DNA of 64,000 nucleotides from Chloroflexota bacterium (GCA_040753815.1 JBFMDU010000016.1:64811-128810), one strand, 5' to 3'; positions 20,403 to 41,137 are shown, counted from the stretch's first letter. Notes: generated by a model not told the origin, from the letters alone. A program made the numbers and translations.

Positions 20403-21722
20403 TCAGCTAGCTTTTTGACCATCTGCCATAACACCGCTGCTGACCAGCTTTTCGTAAAGTTGCGGGCGGTCCTTCTTAATGATGCCGACATTCCTGGCAA
20501 GCATCATGGCAGGATAACCTATCCTACCTGCAAAGAGTCCATATACGTAGTCAACGTCTTCATCAGTAGCATGTTTAATCCAGTGATACGCGACGCGGTG
20601 CTGTCCACTCCAGAAGGATGGAACCGCGAAAGTAGCGAAGGCCTTTTGTCGCCATTCTACGTATTCATTATAGCCGGGCTGACCTCCAAGCTCTCTCACA
20701 ATGGCCTTTGCAGCCTTGTATCCCTGGGCGACGGCACCCTGGACCCACGACTCCCCTAGTCCAGCATCGCCAGCGAGAACGACATTGCCAACAACACAGT
20801 CTTTAATCGGGGCCTTAAGCTGCAAAGGCGGCGTACCCATGCGCCGGATTACTTTAACCTTGTGGAACATCGGCGCATACCTGGGGTCTCGCATGAACTT
20901 GTCCAGAATTACCGTCACAGGCATATCTTTGGTTCCCGTAGCACCCACGAGGTTCGTACCGTCCTTCCACATCCCGATCATAAGCGTTGTAAACGGATTA
21001 ATGCTGGGCACGGTAAAGCTAACCCATGAGTTCGGCACATACGGACTCTCAAGCCCCTCAACAATATATTGCATATACGTAGCACCATAGTAGGTTTTGA
21101 CCTCCCTCTTCTCCTCCAACCCAAGGCTCTCCATAATCTTCGACTCGAGACCATCAGCGGCTATTACGGCTCTACCCTCAATTACTTCAGTATTACTCTT
21201 AGACTGCACCTGAACGCGAACACCGCCAGCTACGTTCTCGGCCGCAATGCCAGTGGTCTCAGTTCGTACGGTTGCGCCGGCTTTCTCAACATCTTTTGAA
21301 AGCTGCCCTAAGAAGGTCGCTTTGTCGAAGTAGAAGCCCCAGGGCCAGCAGTCAGGCTTGTAGCGGTAGACAACGTGACCAGACGGAGACACCTGCACCC
21401 AGTTGAGATAAGGTCTAAGCTGTCCCTCATAGTCTACATTAAAGCCAGGACCCCAGAGGTGAAAACGCGTCTTGTTAAGATCCGGCATACACTCAACAGA
21501 TACTGGCTCAATATAGGCGTCAAGATGTTCTTTAACCCCTGACTCAGTTTCGTAGCTGGAACTCATCTTGCACGTGTAGAAGATGGAAGCGCAACCGCGC
21601 GATATCTCCCCCAGATTGCTCTTCTTATCAATGAGGAGTACCTTCAAACCATCTTCGGCAGCCGTCTTGGCTGCCATTAACCCTGCTGGACCACCACCAA
21701 CAATTACTAAGTCATACTTCAC
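20403..21722 (-). CDS. FAD-dependent oxidoreductase (geranylgeranyl-reductase-like family), paralogue 1
   Basis: 439 aa. N-terminal MKYDLVIVGGGPAGLMAAKTAAEDGLKVLLIDKK Rossmann dinucleotide motif and an internal GDAG motif. Paralogous to the 28699-30012 gene. Confidence 0.8.
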   Translation of the reverse strand: MKYDLVIVGGGPAGLMAAKTAAEDGLKVLLIDKKSNLGEISRGCASIFYTCKMSSSYETESGVKEHLDAYIEPVSVECMPDLNKTRFHLWGPGFNVDYEGQLRPYLNWVQVSPSGHVVYRYKPDCWPWGFYFDKATFLGQLSKDVEKAGATVRTETTGIAAENVAGGVRVQVQSKSNTEVIEGRAVIAADGLESKIMESLGLEEKREVKTYYGATYMQYIVEGLESPYVPNSWVSFTVPSINPFTTLMIGMWKDGTNLVGATGTKDMPVTVILDKFMRDPRYAPMFHKVKVIRRMGTPPLQLKAPIKDCVVGNVVLAGDAGLGESWVQGAVAQGYKAAKAIVRELGGQPGYNEYVEWRQKAFATFAVPSFWSGQHRVAYHWIKHATDEDVDYVYGLFAGRIGYPAMMLARNVGIIKKDRPQLYEKLVSSGVMADGQKAS

Positions 21723-21890
21723 AGGTAGTCTCCTTCATAATTATTTGGCATGTATATTAGGACGGAGAGTGTTCGAATAGACCAGTAGACATCCCCTCTC
21801 GAGCCCATCCAAATTTAGAATCCAAAGCGGATTTGACGCTATTGAGTGATTAGGGAGGCTAAATGATACACTCACATAAGATAGCATATA

Positions 21891-21910
21891 TTACCTGACT
21901 AGTCAAGTAA
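21891..21910. promoter_or_regulatory. Near-perfect 20-bp palindrome in divergent promoter region (candidate MarR operator)
   Basis: TTACCTGACTAGTCAAGTAA has 9 of 10 paired positions and a core TGACTAGTCA. It lies in the 300-bp AT-rich gap between the FAD oxidoreductase (-) and marR (+). A second inverted repeat, TAATTCCG...CGGAATTA, follows. Confidence 0.4.
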
Positions 21911-22025
21911 TTCCGTAGCTAATTACTCCGGAATTAATAATCGTATATGACTATAAATACTTGTTCTAACTTTGGCCGTATAGTAATATTGACTCGATTT
22001 ATTAAGCCGATCGAGGCCTTCACAG

Positions 22026-22514
22026 ATGAGAAGAACAATCTCTTGGGAAGAGGGGCAACAACTATGGGTGATGTTCGATACCACATACTATGCCTTGCTT
22101 AAAGCTCGAGACCAGGAGTTAAAGGATGAAGGTATCCTCCTGATGCAGAGCGGCATACTGGCTCTCGTAGTAATGCTTGGGGACAATGCCTTCCCTGCGG
22201 AAATGGCCAGAAGATTGGTAAGAGAGCCTCATTCCGTTTCGCAAATTCTCACACGAATGGAGAGGAAAGGATTGGTGCGGAGGGTGCCCGACCCACGACG
22301 AAGGAATGGGATCAGGATCGAGGCAACCAGGAAAGGGCTGGAAGTCTTTCACTCGGCAAGGAAACGAGGCTCTTTCAACCGTATCATGATACGTATTTCA
22401 CCACGAAAGCGAACGCGGTTGATGCAACTTCTCGATGAGGTCAAACGAAGCGCTCTGCTTGAAACTGGCGGCACGGCCACGTCGGCTCCACCGAGCACTC
22501 GATGGCCCAGCTAA
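22026..22514 (+). CDS. MarR family transcriptional regulator
   Basis: 162 aa. Winged-helix region PAEMARRLVREPHSVSQILTRMERKGLVRRVPDPRRRNGIRIEATRKG is typical of MarR. Confidence 0.8.
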   Translation: MRRTISWEEGQQLWVMFDTTYYALLKARDQELKDEGILLMQSGILALVVMLGDNAFPAEMARRLVREPHSVSQILTRMERKGLVRRVPDPRRRNGIRIEATRKGLEVFHSARKRGSFNRIMIRISPRKRTRLMQLLDEVKRSALLETGGTATSAPPSTRWPS

Positions 22515-22566
22515 TTATTCGTGAAACACTATTGTTGTATACGAAGAAAGAGGTGTGGAAATTCCC

Positions 22567-23610
22567 TTACCACCTCTTGTGTTTAAGTGACCACTCCCTC
22601 GCTTCATCAGCATTCTTCGGCAGGTAATCGGCGAGCATACTGGGCGGGAACTGGCCGGGATGCTGGGTCAGCACCGGCGCGTAGATTTCTGTCCGAATGT
22701 TAGGGATAGTATGCGTCTTGCGGTGGAGGGCAATGGGGATTTGCCAGGAGACTATTTCTTCACGCGAGTCAGTGGCCTCCTGGAGTATCTGGCCATGAGG
22801 GCCGACAATCATCGAGCCGCCGCCACCATAATTGACATCGGGATGGCCGAAGCTTATACCTTGGAGCGTTTCACCGGAGCCGCCATTTGAATAGATGCCA
22901 TAAAGCATGCTGGCGGCACAGTCAGAGCGGAAGATAGTGCGGTAACGCCCATGTCGGAGTCCCTCACCAGCACCGCCGATACAGCGGCACAGGATTTCCG
23001 CCCCGTTGAAGGCAAAGGCCCGGGCAGTTTCCGGCGCGAACCCTTCTGAGCAGATATAAACAGCAATATTGCCAATGGGCGTTTTTGCCACCTGCCAAAC
23101 GGCATCCCACCCATACTTAGCTACATATTTATCAAGGACATCGTGAGCGCAGGTCGAGTACTCCAGACCCATCCCGGGAAAACCGCCGTAGGCTTTCCAG
23201 TGCACATGGATGACACCCTCTTTCGGGCCAATCAGGATTGCCGAGTTGAAGAAGTGACCAGGCCATTCCCGGTCCTGCGTGTGGCTTCCGAAGGCGATGT
23301 AGCAGTTCCACTCTTTTGCCTTTTGCGCCAGAGCTTCGGTTTCCGGACCCGGAACCATGATAGCGACTTTCAGCCACTCATCCCTCGTCCATCGCTCGCT
23401 GAATCCGGTTAGAGTAAACTCGGGAAAAACGAGCAGTTGCTTTCGACCTATAGGCCACTGCTGGGCAACATCGCACAAATAGAGCATGTGCTCCAGGTTA
23501 CGCTTACGGTCGCTGGCGAGGTTCTCCAGCGTCACCGGCCTCGGGTTCATCTGTACCGTGGCCACGGTGATTTCATCATATTCAAGTGGTACTGTTCCGT
23601 ATCCCGACAT
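22567..23610 (-). CDS. Carbon-nitrogen hydrolase family amidase (aliphatic amidase/formamidase-like)
   Basis: 347 aa. Glu in VFPEFTLTGF, catalytic Cys in VYICSEGFAPE, and AEILCRC as in AmiE/AmiF (AELIVRC). Length fits the amidase branch. Confidence 0.75.
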   Translation of the reverse strand: MSGYGTVPLEYDEITVATVQMNPRPVTLENLASDRKRNLEHMLYLCDVAQQWPIGRKQLLVFPEFTLTGFSERWTRDEWLKVAIMVPGPETEALAQKAKEWNCYIAFGSHTQDREWPGHFFNSAILIGPKEGVIHVHWKAYGGFPGMGLEYSTCAHDVLDKYVAKYGWDAVWQVAKTPIGNIAVYICSEGFAPETARAFAFNGAEILCRCIGGAGEGLRHGRYRTIFRSDCAASMLYGIYSNGGSGETLQGISFGHPDVNYGGGGSMIVGPHGQILQEATDSREEIVSWQIPIALHRKTHTIPNIRTEIYAPVLTQHPGQFPPSMLADYLPKNADEAREWSLKHKRW

Positions 23611-23918
23611 GTTTCCTCCTTATAGCATCCCCTGCATACGTAATAGTATTGAAACGCCTACACGGTCAATGGACGATCTTTATCTTGCCACGCTATGGTC
23701 ACACCCACAGGCGGACTATATCATAGACATTGCACCGCCGCCAGAATACCAATCCACATAACAGTTCACGCCGAATCAACAGTATGGTCGTTTTGTCCGG
23801 GGCGGCTAATCCAGTAAAATTACACTAGGCTAATTTTACTACCGCATGCACTTGCCGGCATCGCCCGATGCCTGCTTACGGATTGATGGCTAACTCTCAA
23901 GGAAAGGAGCCTGGAACC

Positions 23919-25511
23919 GTGAACAAACTGTTGATTATCTACTGGACTCAAACCGGACATGTTGAAAGCATGGCCAAAGCCTGCGAAGAAGGCGCCAAGA
24001 CGGCCGGGGCCACTGATGTACGGTGCATCAAGGTGACCGAGCTGACTAAGGCGGACCTGGAAAACTATGAGGTCTTCATCTGGGGGACCGGCAACTACTT
24101 CCAGACCATGGCCGGCATGATCTGGGACTTCTTCTGCAGATACCACTACGACTTGCTGAAAATGCCCAAGGCGAAAAATAAGGTCTATTCTTGCGTCGTC
24201 AGCGCCGGCATCGGTGGGGCAATGTGCCTCGACGGTCTCAACCACCGCCTCCAGGAGCTGAAGTGGAAGCGGGCGTTCGACACGGTGGTGGCCTTCGAAG
24301 AGCCCAAGCCGGAGATTCTGGAGAAGTGCCGCGAACTAGGCAAGAAAATGGCAGAGGTAAACCCGGCGGAGGCCGCCGACCTCAACCCACCCCGAAAGCC
24401 ACGATTTGAATGGCCGGAGTACTTCCGCATGATCGCCTGGAGCGGCGTCGGCGTCGAAGTATCCAAGTCCTGGACAAAGTTCCTGGCCGAAGATACCAAG
24501 ATGAAAATCATCATCACACCGGAGAGCAACACCGTCAACCGCTTCAAATGGACCGGCCTGAAAATGTACCAGCTTACCGCCGGCGGCACTACCGAGACCA
24601 GCCAGATGCTGATGGCCGACCACAAGTACGCCTCCCGTGACACCGGCCCGTGGCCAATCCGCGCTATCTGGGCACAGTCCAAGTCATGCTCTGGTATGTT
24701 CGTCCGCGGCGATTCCCCAATCAAGACCGTCTATGACATCAAGCCTGGCACACGAGTTGCCGATATGCTCCCCTATGCCGCCAGCACCCGCATCGTTGAT
24801 GCCTACCTTGCCTGGGGCAAGATTGATAAGAAGGACGTTACCTGGGTCCCCGGCAAGAACTACCCGGAGAACGTAAAATCGGTTATCGAAGGCAAGTGCG
24901 ATGTCTGCTTCGGCATACCTACCTCACCATCAGTCGAGGAGGCTGAGAAGAACCCTCACGGCATACGCTGGCTGGAATTTAATCCCAACGAGGACCCGGA
25001 AGGATACAAGCGGTTCATCGCTCACGACCCGCTGGTCACTTTCGGTAAAATGCACGCCGGTGTGCCTTCATGCCTCGGCGTCTGGTCCAACGTCGGTGTC
25101 AGCCTCTATACCTGCCATGCCGAAATCAGCGCTATGATGACCACTCGCCTCTGCCGCTGGTTCGATGAGAACTATGAAAAATACAAGAGCGCCCATCCAT
25201 GGAACCAGTGGATGAGCCTCGATACACTGCTCGAAGAGATGGAGCACACCTTCATCCCGGCCCATGAAGGACTGGTACGCTTCCTCACCGAGAAAGGCAT
25301 CTGGACGCCGGTCCACGCCGACCGTCAGAAGCAGAACGTCGAGCTGATTGACCGCTATGTCCGCGCCTATCAGGAGGCCAAAGATATGGCCGATACTAAA
25401 GGCCTAGCCATCCAGCCGGAAAACCAGCAGTGGATTGAGCTCTGGGAAAATTATAAAAAGGAGAAGAACCTCCCGCCTTTCTACCTGTTCAAATCACTTA
25501 AGGAGGCTTAG
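23919..25511 (+). CDS. Fusion protein: WrbA/flavodoxin-like domain + leaderless TAXI-type solute-receptor-like domain
   Basis: A GTG start lies 9 nt after AAGGAG. The N-terminal ~165 aa (KLLIIYWTQTGHVESMAKACEEGAKTAGA) are flavodoxin-like. From FEWPEYFRMIAWSG onward the sequence is colinear with the four other paralogues (NTVNRFKW, ETSQMLMADHKYASRD, YDIKPG, EAEKNPHG, HEGLVRFLTEKGIW). Confidence 0.7.
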   Translation: MNKLLIIYWTQTGHVESMAKACEEGAKTAGATDVRCIKVTELTKADLENYEVFIWGTGNYFQTMAGMIWDFFCRYHYDLLKMPKAKNKVYSCVVSAGIGGAMCLDGLNHRLQELKWKRAFDTVVAFEEPKPEILEKCRELGKKMAEVNPAEAADLNPPRKPRFEWPEYFRMIAWSGVGVEVSKSWTKFLAEDTKMKIIITPESNTVNRFKWTGLKMYQLTAGGTTETSQMLMADHKYASRDTGPWPIRAIWAQSKSCSGMFVRGDSPIKTVYDIKPGTRVADMLPYAASTRIVDAYLAWGKIDKKDVTWVPGKNYPENVKSVIEGKCDVCFGIPTSPSVEEAEKNPHGIRWLEFNPNEDPEGYKRFIAHDPLVTFGKMHAGVPSCLGVWSNVGVSLYTCHAEISAMMTTRLCRWFDENYEKYKSAHPWNQWMSLDTLLEEMEHTFIPAHEGLVRFLTEKGIWTPVHADRQKQNVELIDRYVRAYQEAKDMADTKGLAIQPENQQWIELWENYKKEKNLPPFYLFKSLKEA

Positions 25512-25513
25512 TC

Positions 25514-26635
25514 ATGCCCGCTTACCCCGATTTCAAATGGCCCAGGCGCTTCAATGTCATCAACTGGGCCGGCATGGGCTACGAATCGACGAAAAGCTGG
25601 TCGGAACTGTTCGAGGCCGACACCGGCTGTAAGGTCCACGTCGCCCCCGAGTTCGATACCGTCAACCGCTTCCGCTGGCTGGGCATGGGCATGTTCCAGC
25701 TTACCGGCGGCAACCATAGCGAGACCAGCCAGATGCTTATGGCCGACCGCAAGTACGCTACTCGCGACGGGGGGCCAATTCAGGTTAGGTCGGTCTGGGT
25801 GCATTCCAAAAACAACAGCGGCTTCTTCATGCGCGGCGACTGCAAGATGGTCACACCCTATGATATCAAGCCCGGCACCAAGATGGTCCATATGACCTAC
25901 GTGGCCAACACACGCGTCGTCGAAGGCCTGCTCGCCTGGGCCAAGGTGAAGAAGGAAGACATTGACTGGATACCCGCCAACAACTCAATCGAAAACTATA
26001 AGCTGGTACTTGAGGGCAAGGCGGAAATCGGCTTCAGCTTCCCTAACTCGCCGACGATGCGCGAGGCGGAGAAGAACCCTTACGGCATCAAGTGGCTGGT
26101 GCTCGACGCTGCTAAGGACCCTGAAGGGGCAAAGCGTTTTCAGACAATCGACCCGCTCATCCGCTTCGGCATTATCCCTGAGGGCGGTGTGAAATCAGCC
26201 GCCAATGTACCCAGCACCGAAGGCATCGTTTACGAGGTCACGCTGGAAAGCACCGACCCGGCTTTCGTCTACAACCTGGCCAAATGGTTCGACCTTAACT
26301 TCAAACGGTTTCAGAAGCGCCACCCGGACAACACCTTCAAGAACCGGGAGACCCTTGCCAGAGGACTGCGCTACACCTACATCCCCTGCCACGAGGGTCT
26401 GATTGAATACCTCAAAGAGCTTGGAATCTGGACCAAGGCGCACGACATCCGGCAGAAGAAAAACACTGCGCTTATCAACCGCTATTGCGAGGCCTACCCG
26501 AAGGCGATTGAAGAAGCCGACGACCGCCAGATTGTCGTCGACCCCAAGAACCCGGACTGGCAGACATACTGGGCGGACTACAAGAATAAGCTGGGCATAC
26601 CGGAGTTCAAGCTGTTTGACGACCTGCCTAAGTAG
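25514..26635 (+). CDS. Leaderless TAXI-type (TRAP solute-receptor-like) protein, paralogue 2
   Basis: 373 aa. Starts MPAYPDFKWPRRFNVINWAGMG with no signal peptide and has an AAGGAGG RBS. The C-terminal CHEGLIEYLKELGIW corresponds to the TAXI HpGA..Y motif. Confidence 0.7.
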   Translation: MPAYPDFKWPRRFNVINWAGMGYESTKSWSELFEADTGCKVHVAPEFDTVNRFRWLGMGMFQLTGGNHSETSQMLMADRKYATRDGGPIQVRSVWVHSKNNSGFFMRGDCKMVTPYDIKPGTKMVHMTYVANTRVVEGLLAWAKVKKEDIDWIPANNSIENYKLVLEGKAEIGFSFPNSPTMREAEKNPYGIKWLVLDAAKDPEGAKRFQTIDPLIRFGIIPEGGVKSAANVPSTEGIVYEVTLESTDPAFVYNLAKWFDLNFKRFQKRHPDNTFKNRETLARGLRYTYIPCHEGLIEYLKELGIWTKAHDIRQKKNTALINRYCEAYPKAIEEADDRQIVVDPKNPDWQTYWADYKNKLGIPEFKLFDDLPK

Positions 26636-30598: not shown

Positions 30599-30745
30599 CT
30601 AACGTTCTTAATGAGACTTCAAGCCTTACAAACTTACATATACCCGACGATTGGAAGCAATTATGGCAATAAGCGCCAACGATGTAAACATTTAATTGCG
30701 GTTACCTCTTGACAAAACCACCGGCATACTGCTATCCTTAAATAT

Positions 30746-30761
30746 ACGGAGTATACTCCGT
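30746..30761. promoter_or_regulatory. Perfect 16-bp palindrome (candidate MarR operator)
   Basis: ACGGAGTATACTCCGT is self-complementary. The half-site GTATACTCC is repeated again at 30762-30770. It lies in the AT-rich divergent region between marR (-) and the lipoprotein/TAXI-TRAP genes (+). Confidence 0.45.
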
Positions 30762-30859
30762 GTATACTCCATTATATCAGAGATGGCAAGACTTCGATAC
30801 CCACTTCCGGCACCTTATCTTAATAGCCGCTAGAATGTTATTATTTTAAGGAGGTTGAT

Positions 30860-32693: not shown

Positions 32694-32742
32694 TTTTAAG
32701 ATAGTATAGAGAACCCATTCCATCCGCTCAGAAGCCGGACGG

Positions 32743-34800: not shown

Positions 34801-35949
34801 ATGGCTAAAAAAAACTTCCGCTGGCCCGACAGTATCCGGGTCATCGGCTGGACGGGACTCGGAGTCAACATCTACAACGCCTGGGTGCCGAAGATATGCA
34901 AAGACACCGGCATGAGACAGCGCATCGCCAACACCAAGGACAGCCTGGAGCGATTCAAGTACACCAAGCTGGGGCTGTTCGATATGACCGCCGGCGGCAC
35001 CACCGAAACCAGCCTGATGATGGAGGGCGATCGCCGCTTCGCCGACCGCGACACCGGGCCTTACCAGATAAGAGTGGTCTGGGTGCAATCTCGCGGCAAC
35101 TCCGGAATCGTGGTCAGGGGCGATTCCCACATCAAGAACATTTACGACATCAAACCCGGGGTACGCGTGGTGGACATGCGTCACTATGTCGCCAGTCAGC
35201 GTATCCAGGAAGCCTGCCTTGCCTGGGCAGGTCTCAAGGACATCGAAAAAGAAGTCCAGTGGGTGCCGGCATACAGTTCCGAGGAGAAAGTGAAACTGAT
35301 TGTTGACGGCAAAGCCGATATGACCCACATCGTCTCATCAACTGTCGCCGTGGTGGAAGCCGAAAAGAACCCGCACGGCCTGCGCTGGATAGACCTGAAC
35401 GAAGAGAAGGACCCGGTGGGCGCCGCATGGTTCCGCGCCCATGACCCGCTGGTCGCCTTCGGCCCAATGTTCAACGGACCGCCATCTTGCATCGGCGTCT
35501 GGGGCACCATCGGCACCAGCCTCTACATCACCAACGAAAAAAGCGACGCTGAATACGTATACCACCTGGCGAAGTGGATGGATGAGAACTGGTCCCGCTA
35601 CAAAGACGGGCATCCCTGGTGCAAATACATGACCCGTGATAACTTGATGGACGAGCTTAATCATACTTTCTACCCCTGCCACGAGGGCCTGATTGCCTAT
35701 TTGAAAGAGCTCGGCCTGTGGACGGCTGACCACGACCGGCGTCAGAAATTCAACGTTGGCATGGTCACCCGCTACTGTGAGGCTAACACCGCCGCCATCG
35801 CCAAAGCCGACGAGATGAACCTGTGGGTAAACCACCAGAACCCGAAGTGGATTGAGTTCTGGGAGAACTACAAGAAGGAAATAAACCTGCCCAAGTTCCG
35901 CATGTTCCGCAACATTAAGACCGATGAATTCGCCGCTGGAAGGAGATAA
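34801..35949 (+). CDS. Leaderless TAXI-type protein, paralogue 4
   Basis: 382 aa. Starts MAKKNFRWPDSIRVIGWTGLG with no signal peptide. Contains GGTTETSLMMEGDRRFADRDTGP, YDIKPG, EAEKNPHG and CHEGLIAYLKELGLW. Confidence 0.7.
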   Translation: MAKKNFRWPDSIRVIGWTGLGVNIYNAWVPKICKDTGMRQRIANTKDSLERFKYTKLGLFDMTAGGTTETSLMMEGDRRFADRDTGPYQIRVVWVQSRGNSGIVVRGDSHIKNIYDIKPGVRVVDMRHYVASQRIQEACLAWAGLKDIEKEVQWVPAYSSEEKVKLIVDGKADMTHIVSSTVAVVEAEKNPHGLRWIDLNEEKDPVGAAWFRAHDPLVAFGPMFNGPPSCIGVWGTIGTSLYITNEKSDAEYVYHLAKWMDENWSRYKDGHPWCKYMTRDNLMDELNHTFYPCHEGLIAYLKELGLWTADHDRRQKFNVGMVTRYCEANTAAIAKADEMNLWVNHQNPKWIEFWENYKKEINLPKFRMFRNIKTDEFAAGRR

Positions 35950-35952: not shown

Positions 35953-37101
35953 ATGCCTGCTAAGAAAAGCTACAAATGGCCTGAAAAACACCGCATCCTG
36001 ACCTGGTCCGGCGTCGCTGTTGATGGCGCCCATAGCTGGGCCGACCTGCTTCAGCAGGATACCGGCATGAAATTCCAGATTGGCGGCGACTACAACACGG
36101 TCAACCGCTTCCGCTGGCTGGGACGGGTCGGGCTGTCCGACCAGACTATCGGCGCTCCTAGCGAGACCAGCCAGATGGTCATGGCTGACCGCAAATATGC
36201 TGTCCGCGACGGCGGGCCTTTCCAGGTAAGGGTCGTATGGATGCAGTCCAAAGGGAACGCCGCTTTCTTCACCCGCGGCGATTCAAAAATCAAGACACCT
36301 TACGATATCAAGCCCGGTACACGCATTACCGATATGAACCCCTACGCTGCCGCCACCCGCGTCGTCGAAGGCCTGCTGGCCTGGGCCAAGGTCGATCCCA
36401 AGGAAATCCAGTGGGTGCCGGTCCACAATCCAGAAGAGAACATCGGGGCCGTTGTTTCAGGCAAGGCCGATATCTGCTTCAGCTTTCCTATCAACCCGCT
36501 TATCCACGAAGCCGCTAAGAACCCGCTCGGCCTGGGCATTGTAGAGACCAACGCTGAGAAGGACCCTGAGGGCGCCAGACGCTTTCGCGAAAAGGACCCG
36601 CTGGTCAATTTCGGCATCATTCCTGAAGAAAGCCTCAAGGCCGCCGGTGGCAAATGGGGCACGCAGGGCCTCAACCTGGAACTGACCAACGAACGTGTTG
36701 ACGCCGAACTCATCTACCACATCGCCAAATGGCTCGATGAGAACTACGACCGCTACAAGGACCGCCATAGAGAGAACCGATTCCGCACCCGTTTCTGGTT
36801 GATGAAAGCGCTGGAGCAGACTTTTGTCCCCGCCCATGAGGGCCTTATCGCCTACTTAAAGGACCTCAAGCTCTGGACCGACAAGCACGAGCGGCGCCAG
36901 CAAAAGAACCTGGAACTGCTAACCCGCTACTGTGACGATTATCAGAAACTTATCTGGGCGGCTGATGACGCCAACATCGAGGTCACCCCCATTAACGAGA
37001 AGTGGGTGCGTCTCTGGACGGAATACCGCGACGCGGTACTGCCGCCAATCAAGCTTTTCACCAGCCTCGATGACGAACAGATGGTTGGCGACATTGGTTA
37101 A
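35953..37101 (+). CDS. Leaderless TAXI-type protein, paralogue 5
   Basis: 382 aa. Starts MPAKKSYKWPEKHRILTWSG with no signal peptide. Contains NTVNRFRWLG, ETSQMVMADRKYAVRDGGP, YDIKPG and AHEGLIAYLKDLKLW. GGAAGGAG RBS. Confidence 0.7.
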   Translation: MPAKKSYKWPEKHRILTWSGVAVDGAHSWADLLQQDTGMKFQIGGDYNTVNRFRWLGRVGLSDQTIGAPSETSQMVMADRKYAVRDGGPFQVRVVWMQSKGNAAFFTRGDSKIKTPYDIKPGTRITDMNPYAAATRVVEGLLAWAKVDPKEIQWVPVHNPEENIGAVVSGKADICFSFPINPLIHEAAKNPLGLGIVETNAEKDPEGARRFREKDPLVNFGIIPEESLKAAGGKWGTQGLNLELTNERVDAELIYHIAKWLDENYDRYKDRHRENRFRTRFWLMKALEQTFVPAHEGLIAYLKDLKLWTDKHERRQQKNLELLTRYCDDYQKLIWAADDANIEVTPINEKWVRLWTEYRDAVLPPIKLFTSLDDEQMVGDIG

Positions 37102-37111
37102 GGAGGTCTTA

Positions 37112-38152
37112 ATGAACGATACCTTTCTAAGAGCTTGTCGTGGCGAGCCGGTTACCTATACGCCGGTCTGGGTAATGCGGCAGGCAGGACGCAGTCTGCC
37201 CAGGTTCCGCAAAATCTATGACCGCCTCGGCTTCATGAAGATGATTCTCGACCCGGATATATGCGCCGAGGCGACCGTCATGCCCGTTGATGAACTCGGC
37301 GTTGATGCCGCCATTCTCTTTTCCGACATGCTCAACCCGGTAATGCCGATGGGCATGAATCTTGTCTACGAGGTCGGCAAAGGCCCCAAGTACGAACCGC
37401 TAATCAGGAGTAAAGCTGAGGTTGACCGCCTGCGCGTACCTGATGCTGAAAAAAGCCTGGACTATGTGATGAAAAGCATCAAGCTGGCTTCAAAAGCCCT
37501 AAGAAACAAGGTGCCGCTTATCGGGTTTTCCGGCGCGCCGTTTACCCTTGCTGGCTACATGATTGAAGGCGGCCAGTCAATGCGCTACTTCTACACCAAA
37601 CGGATGCTCTTTGAGGAGCCCAAGACTTTCCACGCTTTGATGACCAAGCTGACCGACTTCACCTGCGATTACGTCAATGCCCAGGTCAAGGCCGGCGTTG
37701 ACGCCATGATGCTGTTCGAAAACTGGGCGGTGATTCTGAACCGGCGCGACTATGCAGAATTCGCCCTGCCCTACGTCAAACAAGTGGTGTCATCGCTGAG
37801 AAGAAACGGCGCCAGAGCGGTTCCGATAATCATCTTCTTCAACGGCTTCTCCGCACTCGCCGACGAAATTAAGGCTACTGGCGCCGACGTTATCGGCATT
37901 GATTACCGAACCAACCTTGACCAGGCCATCAAGAAACTCGGACCGCGTTTCGCCGTCCAGGGCAACATCGACCCCTTTTGCCTCTTCTTGCCTCAGAAGC
38001 AGATGGAGACACGGGTCAAAGAAATCCTGCGCATGGGCGCTAAGGCTAAAGGGTTCATCTTCAACCTCGGCGAAACCGTCCAGCCTGAGACGCCCAAAGA
38101 GCGAATTGTTGCCCTGGTAGATGCGGTCCATCGCCTGGGCAAGGCCCATTAG
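37112..38152 (+). CDS. Uroporphyrinogen decarboxylase (URO-D) family protein, HemE-like
   Basis: 346 aa from the ATG after AAGGAGG. FLRACRGEPVTYTPVWVMRQAGRSLPRF, LFSDML, GFSGAPFTLAGYM, QGNIDP and FNLGETVQPETP are colinear with HemE. The usual GHG reads GET. The ORF-track start at 36932 overlaps the upstream gene and is rejected. Confidence 0.75.
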   Translation: MNDTFLRACRGEPVTYTPVWVMRQAGRSLPRFRKIYDRLGFMKMILDPDICAEATVMPVDELGVDAAILFSDMLNPVMPMGMNLVYEVGKGPKYEPLIRSKAEVDRLRVPDAEKSLDYVMKSIKLASKALRNKVPLIGFSGAPFTLAGYMIEGGQSMRYFYTKRMLFEEPKTFHALMTKLTDFTCDYVNAQVKAGVDAMMLFENWAVILNRRDYAEFALPYVKQVVSSLRRNGARAVPIIIFFNGFSALADEIKATGADVIGIDYRTNLDQAIKKLGPRFAVQGNIDPFCLFLPQKQMETRVKEILRMGAKAKGFIFNLGETVQPETPKERIVALVDAVHRLGKAH

Positions 38153-38240
38153 TGACCAGCCACTCATTGCCCGTCTGCCATCTCTCACGTCGTCTGGTTA
38201 TCGACGGCATCTGCTTCAATGCGAGGCGGGAGAAAAACTG

Positions 38241-39512
38241 ATGGTCATGGTAAATGGCAGGTCTCTGCCTCAGGATGAATGGCATCGGAAGTATTACTGG
38301 GACCTCCGGAAAAACGCATGGAACTGCGCCCGCTGCTCTATCTGCAAGTGGGTTGATTCCTGGGAGGTTAAAGACCCCCGGTTTGCCAAAGTCTGTCCCT
38401 CCAGCCAGTACTACTTGTTCGATGCCTATTCCTGCCAGGGGCGTATGGATATCTCGCTAGCTCTGATTGACGGGCGGCTGAAGTACGACGATTCCCCCGG
38501 GCTTCTCAATATTTACTACCGGTGTAACACCTGCGGCGGTTGTGACGCCGCCTGCAAACGTGTTCAGGACATGGAGCCTCTCCGAGTCATGATTGAGATG
38601 AGAACTCGCCTCGTCGCCGATGGCCAGCTCCTGCCACAGCATATTCCCCTGATTGAGAACCTCCGGCGAGAAGATAACATGCTGATGGAGAAGAAAGCCG
38701 GTCGTGGCCGGTGGGCGGATGGGCTCGCCGTCAAAGACCTGACTCGTGACAAAGCTGAATATGCTTTCCATGCCGGCTGTCGTTCTAGCTTCGACCATGA
38801 TTCACGGGAGGCGACGCGGGCTGCTGTTTCTCTTTTAACCGGCGCCGACCTTGACATCGGCATCATGGGTAGTGACGAAGCCTGTTGCGGCGGACGGGCT
38901 TACTCCATGGGCTACCACGGCGAGTTCACCAAGTATGCCGAGCATAATATCGAATCCTGGAGCAGGGCTGGCGTCAAGACGGTGGTCACCAGCTGTGCTG
39001 ACTGCTACTACGCTATCAAGCGCCTCTATCCTGATCTAGGAGCGAAGTTCGAAGTCCTCCATGTTATTGAGTTTATTGACCGCCTGCTTCAGCAGGGTAA
39101 GATAACGTACAGAAAAAGTCTTCCGGCAAGGGTAACCTACCATGACCCCTGCCATATTGGGCGCCGTCTATCTCAGGCGCCCGGTTTCTATATCCCGGGA
39201 CAGCCTATCATGGGTCTCTATGAGGAGCCAAGACACATCATCTCCAGCATTCCAGGTATCGAGTTGGTCGAGATGGCCCGCATCAAGGAATACGCCTGGT
39301 GCTGCGGTGCCGGCGGCGGCGTTCTAGAAGCCTATCCCGAATTCAACCACTTCACCGCCACCGAGAGGATTCGTGAAGCCGTCGAAACTGGCGCCAGCGC
39401 CCTAGTTACTGCTTGCCCCTGGTGTAAGAGGAGTCTCAGCGATGCCGCGACCAGCCTGTCCGCGAGGCTCGAAGTCCTGGACATAGTCGAAGTACTGCAA
39501 CGGGTCATCTAG
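38241..39512 (+). CDS. Fe-S oxidoreductase with two CCG domains (HdrD/GlcF/LutA-like)
   Basis: 423 aa from the ATG at 38241. Cys clusters [10 protein letters not shown] and [11 protein letters not shown]. Two CCG motifs ([14 protein letters not shown]) and YHDPCH. Confidence 0.8.
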
Positions 39513-39559
39513 TTCTTTATCAAGCGAGAGTAAAGAGCAAATCAAAAACGGAGACGCTA

Positions 39560-41137
39560 ATGCCGCACGGCGATGAAAAGCACACCGTCATATTGAGAGA
39601 GCTCCAGGCCATGCTTGGTACGGAATTTGTCTCAGACGACCCGGCTATGCTGGAGGCCTATAGCCGGGAATCCCAAACTCCCTCATTCCAGACTCGCGGC
39701 CGGTACGAGTTCGTCGTCCTGCCGGGGAACACCGAAGATGTCCGGCAAGTGGTCAGGCTGGCTAACCGCCTCCGCTTCCCTTACTCTGCGTTCAGCACCG
39801 GGTTGTACTTCGTAACCGCTTCTGCGGTGCGGCCTTACTGGTGCCTCCTCGATCTGAAACGTATGGACCGTCTCGATATAGAAGAGAAGAATATGTACGC
39901 TCTCGTGGAGCCATATGTCACACACGCCCAGGTTTCGGCTGCCGCCATGCGGAAAGGCCTCTTAAATGGTACCCCTGAAGCTGGTTCCCAGTCGTCCAGT
40001 CTGGCCAATCATATCGCCTTCGGCTTTCAGGGCACGGCTTATCGCAGCGGCTTTGCGGCGCGAAATGTGCTTGGTGTCGAGTGGGTGCTACCCTCCGGAG
40101 ACGTCTTGAAGACCGGGGCCTTATCGACGGCTAGCACGGAGTATTTTTGGGGTGAAGGTCCCGGGCCGGACCTCAGGGCTGTCTTAAGAGGACTAATTGG
40201 CAGTGTTGGGGCACTGGGCGTTATCACCAGAATGGCCATCAAGCTATATCCCTGGCCGGGGCCAACACAACTACCCACCTCAGGCGTGGCTCCGGAGCGA
40301 CGCTGTGACCTGCCCCCAGACCGCTTTCGCTGGCATCTGTTCCAGTACCCGGACATGCCGCAAATGATTGAGGCCGCGCGTGAAATCAGCCGCTCTGAAA
40401 TTGGAGGCATGGTCCATTGCTGGCCGCCTACCTATTACAACTGGTGGTGGTCTAAATCGCGTGAGGAGTACTGGCGCACCTGGATCGATAGCTATTGGCA
40501 GAAAAATGTTAGCAACTGCATTGCGGTCTGCCTCTGGGCTTACGCTTCGGAAAAGCAGCTTCAGTACGAAGAACGCGTCCTGGCCGGGATCATCGCTGAA
40601 ACTGGCGGCACCCCGGTGTCGACCGAAGTGTACGATAAATGGGTCCCCTATGCGGCCAACAACTGGGTGCGCGATGCCAATGCCTGCCGCCTCATGCGTA
40701 TCGGCGGTGGCTATGCCCTTACCGGCGTTACTTTCGACTCTCTGGATGATGCCCTACGTAGTGTGGTTGCCTGCTGGTGGGTTGCGGACAAGTACACCCC
40801 ACCCCTCCTCGATAACGAGCACAAAGCCTGGATTGTTCCTTATGATCTGGGCCATTTCGCCATCGCGGAAACGGAGTGTCCCCGTGAGAAAACGGATGAT
40901 AATGACGCGTCCCTCGGACAGGCCACACGGGACGCCACAACCCGCATGATCGAGGAGGAGGCAGTGAACGTCTTCGCCAACCTTGGCCCGCAAGGCCCGG
41001 TGTGGAGGGCTTTTCCCCGAAACCGAGAGATACTGGAAAAAATCAAGAGAGCACTGGACCCGAACAATCTGGCCAATCCGACCCGGTTGGTCGACATCGA
41101 CGCTATCGAAAGAGCCCGCCAAAAGCCTTCGCCCTAA
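39560..41137 (+). CDS. FAD-binding (PCMH/FAD_binding_4 type) oxidoreductase, GlcD-like
   Basis: 525 aa. [20 protein letters not shown] and [30 protein letters not shown] are typical of the vanillyl-alcohol-oxidase/GlcD family. Adjacent to the HdrD-like partner. Confidence 0.75.

Follow-up and report, generated by a model that had tools for sequence, protein, structure and literature searches.

A mosaic Chloroflexota gene cluster that may acquire and process a haem-precursor tetrapyrrole

Introduction

The conserved core of a gene cluster in a Dehalococcoidia-type member of the Chloroflexota may be a system that acquires and processes an anionic tetrapyrrole of the haem-precursor class, a reading to which we give about even chances. 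The tetrapyrrole link of the cluster is itself well supported. The cluster is little known, and its TAXI proteins, transporter binding proteins of a rare type, occur largely as intracellular copies. It lies in a window of 64,000 nucleotides (the whole stretch of DNA that was analysed), in which an earlier note had seen a single enzyme-rich locus of 20 kb and had suggested uptake and stepwise modification of a tetrapyrrole-like polycarboxylate. That suggestion gains real support from the co-conservation of a recurring gene subset and from six tetrapyrrole families, although its deamidation step is uncertain and the role that it gave to geranylgeranyl-reductase (GGR) relatives is unsupported. 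If the reading is true, the bacteria would complete scavenged haem precursors along a route not described so far.

A conserved core between strain-specific segments

All of the gene content listed earlier was found again by profile matches: two GGR flavoproteins, two MarR regulators, an amidase, an MFS protein, a TAXI-TRAP importer, leaderless TAXI copies, and CbiK-like, HemE-like, CCG and FAD_binding_4 proteins. Alignment to close relatives nevertheless shows a mosaic instead of one conserved block. The core, at ~23.7–38.1 kb, is made of two modules. The first comprises a flavodoxin–TAXI fusion, a leaderless TAXI protein, the MFS transporter, the CbiK-like chelatase and GGR_B, while the second comprises MarR_B, a small lipoprotein, the TAXI lipoprotein, a fused DctQM permease, two leaderless TAXI proteins and the HemE-like enzyme.

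The first strain-specific segment (17410..23748, 6.3 kb, no strand assigned) is missing from the close relatives L002 and L036, the blastn alignment jumping from window position 17409 to 23749, and GC content is 0.50 at 20-22 kb vs ~0.57 in the flanks. It holds a 973-aa ORF (17426-20347) with no Pfam or NCBIfam match, GGR_A, MarR_A and an AmiE/AmiF-like CN_hydrolase. GGR_A (20403..21722, minus strand, 439 aa) is a distant FAD protein of the geranylgeranyl-reductase superfamily; it is 36% identical over its full length (E 4e-99) to GGR_B (28699..30012, plus strand, 437 aa), an FAD protein encoded by the final gene of the chelatase operon. With 81.5 and 82.6 bits on TIGR02032 against a cutoff of 158.8, these proteins give no support to the idea of isoprenoid-tail reduction, as on chlorophylls. 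MarR_A (22026..22514, plus strand, 162 aa; Pfam MarR_2 38.6 bits, cutoff 27) is 40% identical to MarR_B. An AT-rich divergent region with a palindrome had been described for both GGR/MarR pairs, and it holds for pair A, whose palindromes at 21890..21936 (ATTACCTGACTAGTCAAGTAAT; TAATTCCGTAG..CTCCGGAATTA; no strand assigned) overlap weak promoter-like sites on both strands and form a candidate MarR_A operator. Pair B, however, is convergent, and its 91-bp spacer contains no inverted repeat.

The CN_hydrolase (22567..23610, minus strand, 347 aa; Pfam CN_hydrolase 103.7 bits) has formamidases as its top PDB matches and formamidase as its top NCBIfam match (65 bits vs a cutoff of 406). Deamidation is left uncertain, this amidase being strain-specific while another CN_hydrolase subfamily is a regular cluster member elsewhere. 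It is hard to see what the recurrent CN_hydrolase would do in haem chemistry, which counts against tetrapyrrole salvage. GGR, MarR_A and AmiE show no co-conservation with the core: GGR_A, MarR_A and the amidase are strain-specific additions, and GGR_B is common to close relatives only (at 90% in L002 and L112), GGR-like genes near this TAXI family occurring in just one other lineage, L104. The duplicated MarR and GGR modules, formerly the headline of the locus, belong outside the conserved core.

The second segment (38131..41251, 3.1 kb, no strand assigned) is missing from L050 (alignment jump from 38130 to 41252) and from L112 and L113, where an Inhibitor_I42 gene lies directly 3′ of HemE. 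Its HdrD/GlcF-like Fe-S protein (38241..39512, plus strand), with two CCG domains (100 bits) and a 4Fe-4S dicluster (Fer4_8 match), is encoded in an ORF that opens at 38121, with Met41 as the likely start; the top NCBIfam match is TfrB, at 157 bits vs a cutoff of 385. The accompanying FAD_binding_4 flavoprotein (39560..41137, plus strand, 525 aa; Pfam 61 bits) comes from a large paralogous Chloroflexota family with 667 homologues at E<1e-20, of which L116 carries three tandem copies without TAXI or HemE neighbours. A flavoprotein is indeed present, but its description as GlcD-like needs qualifying, since the sequence resembles VAO/PCMH-type enzymes no less than it does GlcD; these enzymes are its top PDB matches, GlcD and D-lactate dehydrogenase being weaker. 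Orthologues of both proteins occur in L115, the Fe-S protein as a 421-aa form at 64% identity and the flavoprotein at 65%. GGR_A, GGR_B, MarR_A, the amidase and the FAD/CCG genes might each take part in the pathway.

TAXI proteins and the TRAP importer

The window encodes four leaderless TAXI copies. One is the C-terminal part (c1) of a 547-aa fusion (23868..25511, plus strand; Flavodoxin_1 and NMT1_3/TRAP_TAXI matches) that the earlier note missed, in which a flavodoxin occupies residues ~19-165 with an FMN loop, WTQTGH, at residue 26; similar fusions exist in L006 and as proteins P0031, P0049, P0065 and P0071. The start codon of the second, c2 (25514..26635, plus strand, 373 aa, no signal peptide), lies 3 nt past the stop of the fusion gene. 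Named 'hypothetical protein' by NCBI, c2 yields an AlphaFold2 model of pLDDT 95 whose top PDB matches are TAXI solute-binding proteins (SBPs). The other two are c3 (34801..35949, plus strand, 382 aa; NMT1_3 53 bits, no signal peptide) and c4 (35953..37101, plus strand, 382 aa; NMT1_3 32.7 bits), with L115 orthologues at 65% and 74%, the latter immediately 5′ of HemE.

The secreted member is a solute-binding lipoprotein (31404..32693, plus strand, 429 aa; NMT1_3 38.9 bits, cutoff 27) with a signal peptide and the lipobox LSGC, which retains 17 of the 19 subfamily-invariant residue positions. It is followed by a fused TRAP permease DctQM (32743..34734, plus strand, 663 aa; TIGR02123 445.6 bits, cutoff 320.65; Pfam DctM 251 bits); in L036 the SBP/DctQM allele is replaced. 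Upstream, a small lipoprotein with a Pro/Thr-rich linker (30860..31348, plus strand, 162 aa) has no Pfam match, and its C-terminal domain recurs beside the cluster in L006, L008 (as DUF4382), L048 and L057, and in L115 an SBP_bac_5 protein carries it as a fusion at its end. Two points weigh against tetrapyrrole salvage: to our knowledge no ligand has been assigned to any member of this TAXI subfamily, and the characterised TRAP substrates that we know of are small carboxylates, so that a macrocycle of 650-830 Da would be unprecedented.

The HemE-like enzyme, the chelatase and the MFS protein

The HemE-like uroporphyrinogen decarboxylase (37112..38152, plus strand, 346 aa), whose start has been moved from 36932 to 37112 with GGAGG just before it, scores 378 bits on TIGR01464 (cutoff 303) and 300 bits to PDB 3cyv, and is ~53% identical to ordinary Nitrospirota HemE. 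The motifs MRQAGR, FSD and GYMIEGG are retained, as are the equivalents of Arg37/Arg41, Asp86 and Tyr164, whereas NLGHG has become NLGETV. Glu321 stands at the position of human His339, a substrate-binding residue whose equivalent is Asp or Glu in the cluster-linked HemE clade.

The CbiK-like class II chelatase (27898..28680, plus strand, 260 aa; Pfam CbiK 102.7 bits) has as nearest PDB entries the Desulfovibrio vulgaris CbiK(P) 2xvx and the Porphyromonas gingivalis FetB 9b86. Both metal-ligand histidines are retained (GHG at residue 147, SEH at 209), the third position being His, not Glu. A HemE score above the equivalog cutoff and the two kept ligands are signs of enzyme integrity, and we count them in favour of tetrapyrrole acquisition and processing. 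Equally similar CbiK homologues (44-45%) in the ordinary cobalamin clusters L010 and L012 count against it. Precedents for handling such compounds exist: FetB, of the CbiK family, puts metal into the porphyrin that a haem auxotroph salvages (PMC13065792), a protein of the flavodoxin superfamily works in anaerobic haem trafficking (PMC10404700), and complete de novo corrinoid synthesis was absent from the Dehalococcoidia genomes of one survey, which apparently scavenge (PMC7506110).

The MFS transporter (26656..27894, plus strand, 412 aa; MFS_1 201 bits) is most like drug/siderophore-efflux-type MFS proteins, its top NCBIfam matches, Tet(A)-class and a bacillibactin exporter, all being under cutoff; orthologues at 41-47% identity adjoin HemE in L008 and L114. 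A scan of ORFs of at least 150 aa found no further tetrapyrrole gene in the window, as had been stated before. The window contains neither genes for coproporphyrinogen oxidase, HemH, ChdC or AhbD nor a cobalamin riboswitch, and both results tell against salvage.

A conserved operator next to MarR_B

MarR_B (30104..30598, minus strand, 164 aa; Pfam MarR_2 match) has a convergent neighbour in GGR_B and a divergent one in the TRAP-HemE operon. On its 5′ side, a promoter-like site and an operator-like palindrome (30709..30776, plus strand) read TTGACA-18-TATCCT, then ATATACGGAGTA|TACTCCGTGTAT, then a further GTATACTCC repeat; the palindrome (30742-30765) lies just past the promoter-like site, which faces the small-lipoprotein/TRAP/HemE operon. 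Promoter and GGAGTATACTCC palindrome are conserved in the relatives L112 and L050, and MarR_B orthologues (57-64% identity) are divergent from a binding-protein/TAXI/TAXI/HemE operon in L115 and L057. From this arrangement, the apparent target of MarR_B is the TRAP-HemE operon and not GGR_B.

Recurrence across Chloroflexota

Does the gene set hold together elsewhere? A subset does: leaderless TAXI, CbiK-like, HemE, MFS, TAXI-TRAP and flavodoxin/FMN genes recur in independent lineages in differing orders, but GGR_A, MarR_A and AmiE do not. Leaderless TAXI and CbiK-like genes are adjacent in eight independent groups, with HemE at most 10 kb away in six (the window genus, L008, L035, L042, L114 and L115); if each of 25 groups had a 1% chance of this, six such groups would be expected with a probability of roughly 1.5e-7. 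Within three genes of a leaderless TAXI, CbiK is found in 7/23 groups and HemE in 4/23. The secreted TAXI SBP, by the same distance, has a CbiK or HemE neighbour in 0/28 groups and DctQM in 17/28.

Leaderless members of this rare subfamily recur, in shuffled orders, beside CbiK, CbiX, HemE, HEM4, nitrilase-superfamily hydrolases and FMN proteins. Six of the families adjoining the subfamily have characterised members that act on tetrapyrroles: URO-D, CbiK, CbiX (in L015), HEM4, AhbC-like and AhbD-like. HEM4 appears both as a HEM4-TAXI fusion and as a second protein, at 57-65 bits vs HemD cutoffs of ~250. In L061, L088 and L063, the TAXI SBP and DctQM share operons with AhbC/NirJ1-like (531-547 bits) and AhbD-like (460 bits, cutoff 500) radical SAM enzymes, and the SBP of the L061 operon is the one most similar to that of the window (46% identity). 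Further fusions are flavodoxin-TAXI, flavodoxin-CbiK (L006) and TAXI-TAXI (763 aa).

Individual loci show how freely the parts move. L008 has two HemE, MFS, CbiK, a double-TAXI fusion, CN_hydrolase, an SBP and two DctQM, and L035 has FMN_red and HemE next to TAXI, TAXI, CN_hydrolase and CbiK. The uptake part can be swapped and the cytoplasmic part kept, an orphan SBP_bac_5 replacing TRAP-TAXI in L115 and L057. In L115 the FAD_binding_4 and CCG (64-65%) and MarR_B (57%) orthologues again flank TAXI-TAXI-HemE, in a different arrangement. The loci repeatedly carry genes for efflux-type MFS proteins and for CDF metal efflux; none has any of the upstream genes hemA/L/B/C or cobA.

A proposed route and its rivals

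Gene content, co-occurrence, the kept catalytic and ligand residues and the conserved operator are direct observations, whereas we infer the substrate, the way in which each step runs and the part of the leaderless TAXI proteins as carriers. In favour of the tetrapyrrole reading stand the co-occurrence despite rearrangement, its specificity for leaderless copies, the fusions, the exchangeable uptake part, the MarR_B promoter and operator kept in relatives, and the published precedents. Candidate substrates are uro- or coproporphyrin(ogen), possibly as metal complexes. The TAXI lipoprotein and fused DctQM permease would import the compound, and the leaderless paralogues, in pairs, may keep the macrocycle, which is labile and polyanionic, bound in the cytoplasm and hand it on to enzymes. 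As to pairing, one copy is joined to flavodoxin, and elsewhere a fusion unites two TAXI copies. The variant HemE would take off acetate carboxyl groups; FMN/flavodoxin proteins, and in some strains the FAD_binding_4/CCG pair, could interconvert porphyrin and porphyrinogen; the chelatase would insert (or remove) a metal, and the MFS protein might move the product or metal chelate. MarR_B would repress the importer-HemE operon through the palindrome just downstream of the promoter-like site.

The cluster might instead be biosynthetic, an anaerobic coproporphyrin-dependent-like branch to haem or another metallo-coproporphyrin cofactor, which we consider unlikely but worth weighing. HemE would be followed by an O2-independent porphyrinogen dehydrogenase (the flavodoxin-TAXI protein and/or FAD_binding_4 with CCG), a CbiK-like coproporphyrin chelatase and an AhbD encoded elsewhere, with leaderless TAXI proteins channelling intermediates and the transporters exporting or re-importing, for example, a porphyrin metallophore. 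The logic of Bacillus hemEHY is a combination of HemE, chelatase and flavoprotein, and the cluster's own trio resembles it; the metal ligands of the chelatase are preserved, the same TAXI subfamily occurs with AhbD-like genes, efflux-type MFS and CDF genes recur, and the L006 flavodoxin-CbiK fusion would couple oxidation to metalation. Against such a branch stand an SBP-dependent TRAP importer probably co-transcribed with HemE, or the orphan SBP_bac_5 in its place, MarR or two-component control typical of substrate-inducible systems, duplicated and variable modules, and the lack of hemA/L/B/C and cobA in all the loci.

Somewhat more doubtful still is a system that takes up or breaks down aromatic or heteroaromatic (poly)carboxylates and amides other than tetrapyrroles. 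In it, proteins with URO-D, CbiK and HEM4 folds would have taken on new chemistry, such as aryl-/pyrrolyl-acetate decarboxylation, with leaderless TAXI proteins as substrate-binding subunits. The wider TAXI subfamily also adjoins UbiD, AMP-ligase (AMP-dependent), family III CoA-transferase, AOR, GGR-like, CrtI-like and AmiE-like genes, a set that looks like anaerobic aromatic-acid catabolism and so counts against tetrapyrrole salvage. Salvage is also disfavoured by the several paralogues at one locus: TAXI genes in four or five copies, a pair of HemE genes in L008 and a double set in L114 are easier to reconcile with a range of substrates than with one cofactor pathway. The closeness of the FAD_binding_4 protein to 4-alkylphenol-oxidising VAO/PCMH enzymes, the lost His339 equivalent, the low HEM4 scores and the small size of known TRAP substrates point to this catabolic reading. 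What opposes it is a HemE above the equivalog cutoff, close to its Nitrospirota counterpart and with the Arg, Asp and Tyr residues kept, a chelatase with both His ligands, AhbC/AhbD-like scores near equivalog cutoffs, and six separate tetrapyrrole families on one TAXI subfamily, hard to explain otherwise.

That the region has no single function, a flexible 20 kb gathering unrelated accessory genes whose theme is coincidence and shared ancestry, is improbable: both segments come and go among close relatives, the L036 SBP/DctQM allele is replaced, most members of the large FAD_binding_4 family have no link to HemE, and GGR, MarR_A and AmiE do not follow the core, yet the core co-occurrence outlasts rearrangement in six to eight independent groups, FAD_binding_4, CCG and MarR_B flank TAXI-TAXI-HemE once more in L115, and fusions join TAXI to flavodoxin and HEM4, and flavodoxin to CbiK.

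Organization of the locus

What makes this locus interesting is a rare TAXI subfamily, the leaderless members of which accompany enzymes of the haem pathway. ORF calling together with Pfam/NCBIfam scans confirmed all the genes named in the earlier note, in what is a public metagenome-assembled genome (MAG) labelled "Chloroflexota bacterium" (NCBI proteins MEW6142438–MEW6142450, on a contig of 151,992 nt). The NCBI names of the five proteins checked are generic ("hypothetical protein," "TAXI family ... subunit," "uroporphyrinogen decarboxylase," "NAD(P)/FAD-dependent oxidoreductase," and "FAD-binding oxidoreductase"), and homologs of the window's unusual proteins are nearly confined to MAGs of Dehalococcoidia, Dehalococcoidales, and Chloroflexota. 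The start of the HemE-like gene, previously placed at 36932, is corrected to 37112, and the 547-residue product of 23868–25511 is a fusion between a flavodoxin and a leaderless TAXI domain. No further tetrapyrrole-family gene was found among the scanned ORFs of at least 150 residues across the window.

Comparison by blastn with two sets of close relatives (81–84% nucleotide identity) reveals a mosaic. The stretch from 23.7 to 38.1 kb is common to close relatives and consists of two transcription units. Module 1 is made of flavodoxin-TAXIc1 (23868–25511), TAXIc2 (25514–26635), an MFS transporter (26656–27894), a CbiK-like chelatase (27898–28680), and the geranylgeranyl-reductase-like (GGR) flavoprotein GGR_B (28699–30012, + strand), with intergenic gaps of 2–20 nt. 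Module 2, divergent from MarR_B (30104–30598, − strand), comprises a small lipoprotein, the TAXI lipoprotein that serves as solute-binding protein (SBP, 31404–32693), a fused DctQM TRAP permease (32743–34734), TAXIc3 (34801–35949), TAXIc4 (35953–37101), and the HemE-like gene (37112–38152). Segment 17410–23748 is missing from the relatives L002/L036 (L numbers designate comparison loci from other genomes and metagenomes), and 38131–41251 from L050 and L112/L113. The first carries a 973-residue ORF, GGR_A (20403–21722, − strand), MarR_A (22026–22514, + strand), and an AmiE-like amidase (22567–23610, − strand). The second contains a CCG Fe-S protein (38241–39512) and a FAD_binding_4 protein (39560–41137); in the relatives without it, HemE is directly followed by an Inhibitor_I42 gene (window position 41301). 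The duplicated MarR and GGR modules, around which the earlier note had organized the locus, are not the conserved feature, GGR_A, MarR_A, and the amidase being absent from L002/L036. The 973-residue ORF (17426–20347), which has no Pfam or NCBIfam match, fills half of the strain-specific 6.3-kb segment.

The SBP and DctQM genes (31404–34734 in the window, 15377–18684 in L036, 760–4100 in L050) occur as two alleles. That of L036/L002 shows 53/59% identity to the window's and that of L050 91–92%, while the flanking genes are 90–97% identical in L036/L002 and L050. This looks like cassette replacement by recombination and, with flanks staying above 90% in L036, the uptake front end is interchangeable and the cytoplasmic part constant.

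Each GGR gene was thought to face its MarR gene across an AT-rich divergent region with a palindrome. This holds for pair A, whose divergent 303-bp intergenic region contains two palindromes at 21890–21936, but not for pair B, which is convergent, with a 91-bp spacer in which no inverted repeat was found. The palindrome near MarR_B (30742–30765, ATATACGGAGTA/TACTCCGTGTAT) does not lie between MarR_B and GGR_B and sits instead on the 5′ side of MarR_B, immediately downstream of the region's best promoter-like site (30709–30738, + strand, TTGACA-18-TATCCT), which faces the small-lipoprotein/TRAP/TAXI/HemE operon. Both this promoter and the GGAGTATACTCC core are kept in the related contigs L112 and L050. 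The two MarR proteins, 40% identical to one another, match the winged-helix MarR_2 model at about 38.7 bits (cutoff 27), and the adjoining palindromes are putative operators. GGR_A and GGR_B share 36% identity (E = 4e-99) and are, on sequence grounds, true but old paralogs.

A rare TAXI subfamily, largely without export signals

Among the five TAXI copies, an export signal (a lipobox) and a DctQM partner are found only for 31404–32693. In each of the other four, the ORF begins at the first start codon that follows an in-frame stop, which leaves no space for a signal peptide; lacking an export signal, these copies are thus no transporter subunits of the ordinary kind. PF16868 scores above its cutoff of 27 in four of the five copies (29–53 bits), the exception being 25514–26635, and TIGR02122 stays below its own (26–54 bits, cutoff 84.35). 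The subfamily is rare, with 555 representatives at E ≤ 1e-3 and 130 at E ≤ 1e-30 among 1.84 billion. In the predicted structure of TAXIc2 (pLDDT 95), the TAXI fold is prolonged by an extra C-terminal helical extension of about 60 residues. Foldseek confirms the fold, with TM scores of 0.6–0.73 to 4ddd, 9ibo, 8u79, and 1us4 and 14–16% identity to solved TAXI proteins, and the next matches after the TAXI SBPs are Thi5-type enzymes. The window SBP is closest to that of L061 (46% identity). Of the 19 subfamily-invariant residues, it retains 17 and the leaderless copies 18–19; these residues include six Trp as well as Arg107, Asp117, His293, and Arg313 (c2 numbering).

Recurrence with CbiK- and HemE-like genes

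To follow the family outside the window, 116 loci were gathered: some came from proteins found by homology search, others from scanning a genome collection with an alignment of CbiK or metagenomes with one of TAXI. The ORFs of these loci were called and clustered, and de-replication left 79 groups. Leaderless TAXI genes adjoin CbiK-like genes in eight independent groups, and HemE lies within 10 kb in six, with gene orders that are all different. One of these six is the window's own genus. In L008 are found an SBP, two DctQM, a 763-residue TAXI-TAXI fusion, a CN_hydrolase, a DUF4382 lipoprotein, TAXI, CbiK, MFS, and two tandem HemE genes. L035 has FMN_red and HemE divergent from two TAXI, a CN_hydrolase, an 87-residue ORF, and CbiK, and L042 the order HemE, CDF, TAXI, TAXI, CN_hydrolase. 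L114 carries CbiK, a CN_hydrolase, and two TAXI, then a CDF gene, a response regulator with its histidine kinase, and finally HemE, MFS, TAXI, CN_hydrolase, TAXI, and a PNPOx-like protein. In L115, two FAD_binding_4 genes, CCG, and a MarR_B ortholog are divergent from SBP_bac_5, TAXIc3, TAXIc4, and HemE; identity to the window is 65% for the orthologous FAD_binding_4 protein, 64% for CCG, 57% for MarR_B, 65% for TAXIc3, 74% for TAXIc4, and 55% for HemE. L006 combines a flavodoxin-TAXI, two TAXI, DctQM, a flavodoxin-CbiK fusion, and a ferredoxin, and more CbiK/TAXI pairs occur in L004, L015, L083, and L103 with a ferredoxin, AOR, free flavodoxin, or SBP_bac_5 protein.

The linkage to CbiK and HemE is specific to the leaderless form. 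Within three genes of leaderless TAXI genes (23 groups), CbiK is present in seven and HemE in four; around the secreted SBPs (28 groups) neither occurs at that distance, and DctQM is a neighbor in 17. In a genome of ~2 Mb, a single-copy gene has a chance near 1% of lying no more than 20 kb from a given gene, and the probability of 6 out of 25 groups is then about 1.5e-7, a rough figure of our own that ignores phylogeny.

An orphan SBP_bac_5 lipoprotein takes the place of the TRAP uptake genes in L115 (5291–7492), L057, and L048; its C-terminus carries the domain of the window's small lipoprotein (30860–31348), and in this other Dehalococcoidia lineage no ABC permease genes lie nearby. A CDF gene (Cation_efflux + ZT_dimer) adjoins the TAXI/CbiK/HemE cluster in three loci (L008 18444–19400, L114 4740–5714, L042 421–1434), which hints at metal handling. 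Tungsten-type AOR genes, often with a small ferredoxin or ThiS-like gene, are found within a few kb of the cluster in the window (48462–50303), L006, L015, L035, and L112. This may reflect a functional tie, or merely the many AOR paralogs per genome.

Other tetrapyrrole families also neighbor the subfamily. In L001, a HEM4 protein (uroporphyrinogen-III-synthase fold) adjoins a HEM4-TAXI fusion; HEM4-like genes follow DctQM in L079 and occur in L081, and a CbiX-like protein adjoins a leaderless TAXI gene in L015. Most telling are the radical SAM/SPASM enzymes that share operons with the secreted SBP and DctQM, and for which the best NCBIfam models are those of late steps in haem synthesis. The L061 operon, in which start and stop codons overlap, encodes an AhbC/NirJ1-like enzyme (531–547 bits, cutoff 650), an AhbD-like enzyme (460 bits, cutoff 500), SBP, and DctQM; L088 has AhbD-like, DctQM, and SBP genes; and in L063 an AhbD-like fragment and a second AhbD/NirJ-family enzyme accompany an SBP and an FMN_red protein of the same family as that beside HemE in L035. 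The tetrapyrrole reading, offered as speculation when the locus was first described, is strengthened by these neighbors and by the recurrence of leaderless TAXI with CbiK and HemE.

The HemE-like and CbiK-like proteins

The HemE-like protein is about 53% identical to an ordinary Nitrospirota HemE, scores 378.3 bits on TIGR01464 (equivalog cutoff 302.95) and 300 bits against Shigella HemE (3cyv), and aligns end to end with solved HemE structures. It keeps the equivalents of Arg37 and Arg41 (MRQAGR), Asp86 (FSD), and Tyr164 in human numbering. Human His339 (NLGHG), named a substrate-binding residue together with Arg37 and Arg41 (PMC3510221), corresponds to Glu321 (NLGETV), and the position is Asp in HemE of L008, L013/L035, L114, and L115. 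The histidine is kept by 107 of the 120 best homologs; the 11 without it include all the closest. Because Glu or Asp replaces this residue, the cluster-linked HemE genes form a variant clade, in which side-chain recognition is possibly altered and activity on uroporphyrinogen is putative.

The CbiK-like protein belongs to PF06180 (102.7 bits, cutoff 26.2) and scores 72.6 bits on the equivalog NF047852, whose cutoff is 400. Its closest solved relatives are the periplasmic CbiK(P) of D. vulgaris (2xvx, E = 3e-18) and P. gingivalis FetB (9b86, E = 3e-14), which inserts metal into a salvaged porphyrin in a haem auxotroph (PMC13065792). His148 (GHG) and His211 (SEH) align with the ligand histidines of 2xvx, and the third ligand, Glu in CbiK(P) and FetB, is His180 here. 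Contrary to these two secreted proteins, the window's chelatase is predicted to be cytoplasmic (no signal peptide) and is co-transcribed with the MFS and flavodoxin-TAXI genes. Homologs of equal similarity (44–45%) lie in the cobalamin clusters of L010 and L012, with CbiD, CbiX-CbiC, CbiP, a tetrapyrrole methylase, and BtuF/FecCD-type genes; the family is therefore one of genuine chelatases, of which the window's copy has moved to a different context. The homolog of L010, a Dehalococcoidales MAG (8960–9835), has an N-terminal lipoprotein-type signal and precedes a CbiX-CbiC fusion and BtuF/FecCD-type transport genes. Desulfobacterota homologs (24–34% identity) have no TAXI, HemE, or MFS neighbors and are thus uninformative on this cluster.

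Variable enzymes

GGR-like genes near the TAXI family are limited to the window's genus and L104, which has three of them with UbiD, two SBPs, two DctQM, and a leaderless TAXI. On TIGR02032, GGR_A and GGR_B score 81.5 and 82.6 bits, under the cutoff of 158.8, and the PDB matches span only the FAD-binding N-terminus. L104 also encodes, between its leaderless TAXI and two GGR-like genes, a tandem-duplicated AsnC/Lrp protein of 296 residues (5100–5990). The fused siroheme decarboxylases (AhbA/B, NirDL) have the same two-module architecture; when the L104 protein was tried as one of them, only generic AsnC domains matched.

The window amidase can be placed in the nitrilase superfamily only (PF00795, 103.7 bits), with 65 bits on the formamidase model (cutoff 406) and 38 on that of aliphatic amidase (cutoff 427). 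AmiE-like hydrolases recur beside leaderless TAXI in L045 and L047, and as three copies in L081, together with an SBP, DctQM, a HEM4-like gene, a CrtI-like FAD protein, an AMP-ligase, and UbiD. A different CN_hydrolase of ~290 residues is regular in the TAXI-TAXI-hydrolase-CbiK unit of L008, L035, L042, L083, and L114, and is missing from the window; the L042 enzyme is of this 290-residue type, not AmiE-like.

Orthologs of the FAD_binding_4/CCG pair recur in the independent L115 in a different arrangement, and this recurrence argues for a functional tie to module 2. The window pair scores far below cutoff on GlcD (62 bits, cutoff 568) and GlcF (22, cutoff 333). The FAD_binding_4 family is large, paralogous in Chloroflexota, and elsewhere not linked to HemE, three tandem copies in L116 having neither TAXI nor HemE neighbors. 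This weakens the idea of a dedicated coproporphyrinogen dehydrogenase, which is possible for the orthologous pair common to the window and L115.

Comparison with known systems

The TAXI-type TRAP transporters (Thermus TtGluBP; Vibrio cholerae VcGluP/VC0430, with fused DctQM) share with the window the binding-protein fold, the fused DctQM, and the lipoprotein SBP. Most of the window's copies differ in having no signal peptide and in being fused to or adjoining enzymes. The ligands known for TAXI proteins are small acids such as glutamate, with no tetrapyrrole among them.

As in the coproporphyrin-dependent haem pathway (HemE-CgoX/HemY-CpfC/HemH-ChdC), the gene of a HemE-type decarboxylase lies together with those of a class II chelatase and of flavoproteins, and AhbC- and AhbD-like enzymes of the late siroheme-dependent steps join the same TAXI subfamily in other lineages. 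However, the chelatase resembles CbiK and not HemH, and HemE carries Glu or Asp in place of His339; importers, MarR, and leaderless binding proteins belong integrally to the cluster, which has no early pathway genes nearby. No CgoX, CpfC, or ChdC (or AhbD) was found among the scanned window ORFs.

Anaerobic haem uptake operons (Fusobacterium HmuF with HmuW; E. coli ChuW/ChuY) likewise encode, along with uptake genes, a flavodoxin-superfamily protein devoted to the handling or reduction of a tetrapyrrole in an anaerobe, and such a protein acts in anaerobic haem trafficking in Fusobacterium (PMC10404700). Here, in contrast, the flavodoxin forms a fusion with a TAXI domain, a ring-opening radical SAM enzyme is lacking, and the enzymes present point to porphyrinogen-level chemistry (HemE) rather than to haem degradation. 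Finally, GlcDEF/LutABC-type dehydrogenases and TcuA/TcuB also have a FAD_binding_4 flavoprotein beside a soluble two-CCG-domain protein, and L115 has the full two-flavoprotein and CCG layout; the window's flavoprotein is nearer to VAO/PCMH enzymes, and its pair is strain-variable.

A possible salvage of haem precursors

What then would be the substrate? In the simplest account, an anionic tetrapyrrole of the haem-precursor class would be taken up and processed in the cytoplasm. This account is drawn from the co-transcription of the importer with HemE; from cytoplasmic binding-protein copies that are paired, or fused to flavodoxin, HEM4, or each other; from a ligand-competent chelatase sometimes fused to flavodoxin; from the FMN proteins, ferredoxins, and CDF metal-efflux genes that recur nearby; from the AhbC/AhbD operons attached to the same SBP subfamily; and from regulators that are MarR proteins or two-component systems. 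That the core is linked to tetrapyrroles at all is likely. For salvage and processing as just set out the odds seem to us even, and individual assignments, for instance that of flavodoxin-TAXI to the role of porphyrin/porphyrinogen oxidoreductase, stand well below that.

The main doubts come from the hydrolase, which has no explained role, and from the neighbors of the wider subfamily, where UbiD, CoA ligases/transferases, AOR, and a VAO-like flavoprotein make up an "aromatic-acid catabolism" set. We also know of no precedent in TRAP systems for a substrate the size of a tetrapyrrole. A corrinoid is less favored as the substrate, since HemE and AhbC/D belong to the haem branch. No cbi genes were found among the scanned ORFs of the window, in contrast to the surroundings of the CbiK homologs of L010 and L012. 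No cobalamin riboswitch was detected in the window or in seven related loci (the sole Rfam family being tRNA-Sec), which led us to reject a cobalamin link for the cluster. Reading the URO-D gene as an MtaA-type methyltransferase fails on the scores, the MtaA/CmuA models reaching 50–80 bits against 378 for HemE. When a HemG-type role was considered for the flavodoxin domain, it matched just the generic Flavodoxin_1 and short-chain flavodoxin models, a result that speaks neither for nor against such a role.

Sediments and aquifers are rich in Dehalococcoidia and their relatives, bacteria known to rely on the cofactors of others; to our knowledge, the tetrapyrrole economy of this group is largely unknown apart from corrinoid salvage. 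The surveyed Dehalococcoidia genomes have no complete de novo corrinoid pathway, and scavenging is inferred (PMC7506110); together with the haem-trafficking flavodoxin of Fusobacterium, this makes salvage plausible, though it is no test of it. Our literature search found no description of the cluster nor any paper linking its components, and nothing relevant on Dehalococcoidia uroporphyrinogen decarboxylase, on TAXI with CbiK, or on coproporphyrin with TRAP transporters.

A bolder proposal, which we regard as rather doubtful, sees in the leaderless TAXI proteins a new class, acting in the cytoplasm as carriers of tetrapyrroles or as subunits of enzymes. With the TAXI-TRAP importer, they would make up the first TRAP-based haem-precursor salvage pathway, in which flavodoxin would drive porphyrin/porphyrinogen interconversion and a HemE variant would recognize side chains differently, and by which Dehalococcoidia-type anaerobes would make haem-class cofactors from porphyrins excreted by their neighbors. 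If true, TRAP transporters would extend to macrocyclic substrates, and solute-binding proteins would be re-used inside the cell to carry reactive pathway intermediates. Missing anaerobic haem steps would gain candidates, a porphyrinogen/porphyrin redox enzyme that needs no O2 and a porphyrin chelatase of the CbiK type, and porphyrin cross-feeding would be an ecological link. Even with another substrate, a rare protein subfamily has been defined, with unusual cytoplasmic paralogs and testable partners.

Surroundings of the locus

The locus is surrounded by selenocysteine machinery, MutS2, AOR, LeuRS, and a toxin-antitoxin islet. The selenocysteine cluster, directly upstream (1–17400), contains tRNA-Sec (5216–5308), SelB (9478–11331, − strand), SelA (11481–12866, − strand), and a SelD-like gene (13260–14174), as well as FdhE-like, TatC, sulphur-transport-family, Se/S carrier-like, and class-V aminotransferase proteins. 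The islet (53353–57071) is low in GC (0.48–0.53) and missing from the relative L050; it encodes a 487-residue ORF without family match, a Schlafen/AlbA_2 protein, an MqsA/SocA-Panacea-type antitoxin, and an MqsR-like toxin. Further on, 61273–63228 (− strand) encodes an Old-Yellow-Enzyme and Pyr_redox_2 flavoprotein with the architecture of 2,4-dienoyl-CoA reductase, which is also that of the bilirubin reductase BilR.
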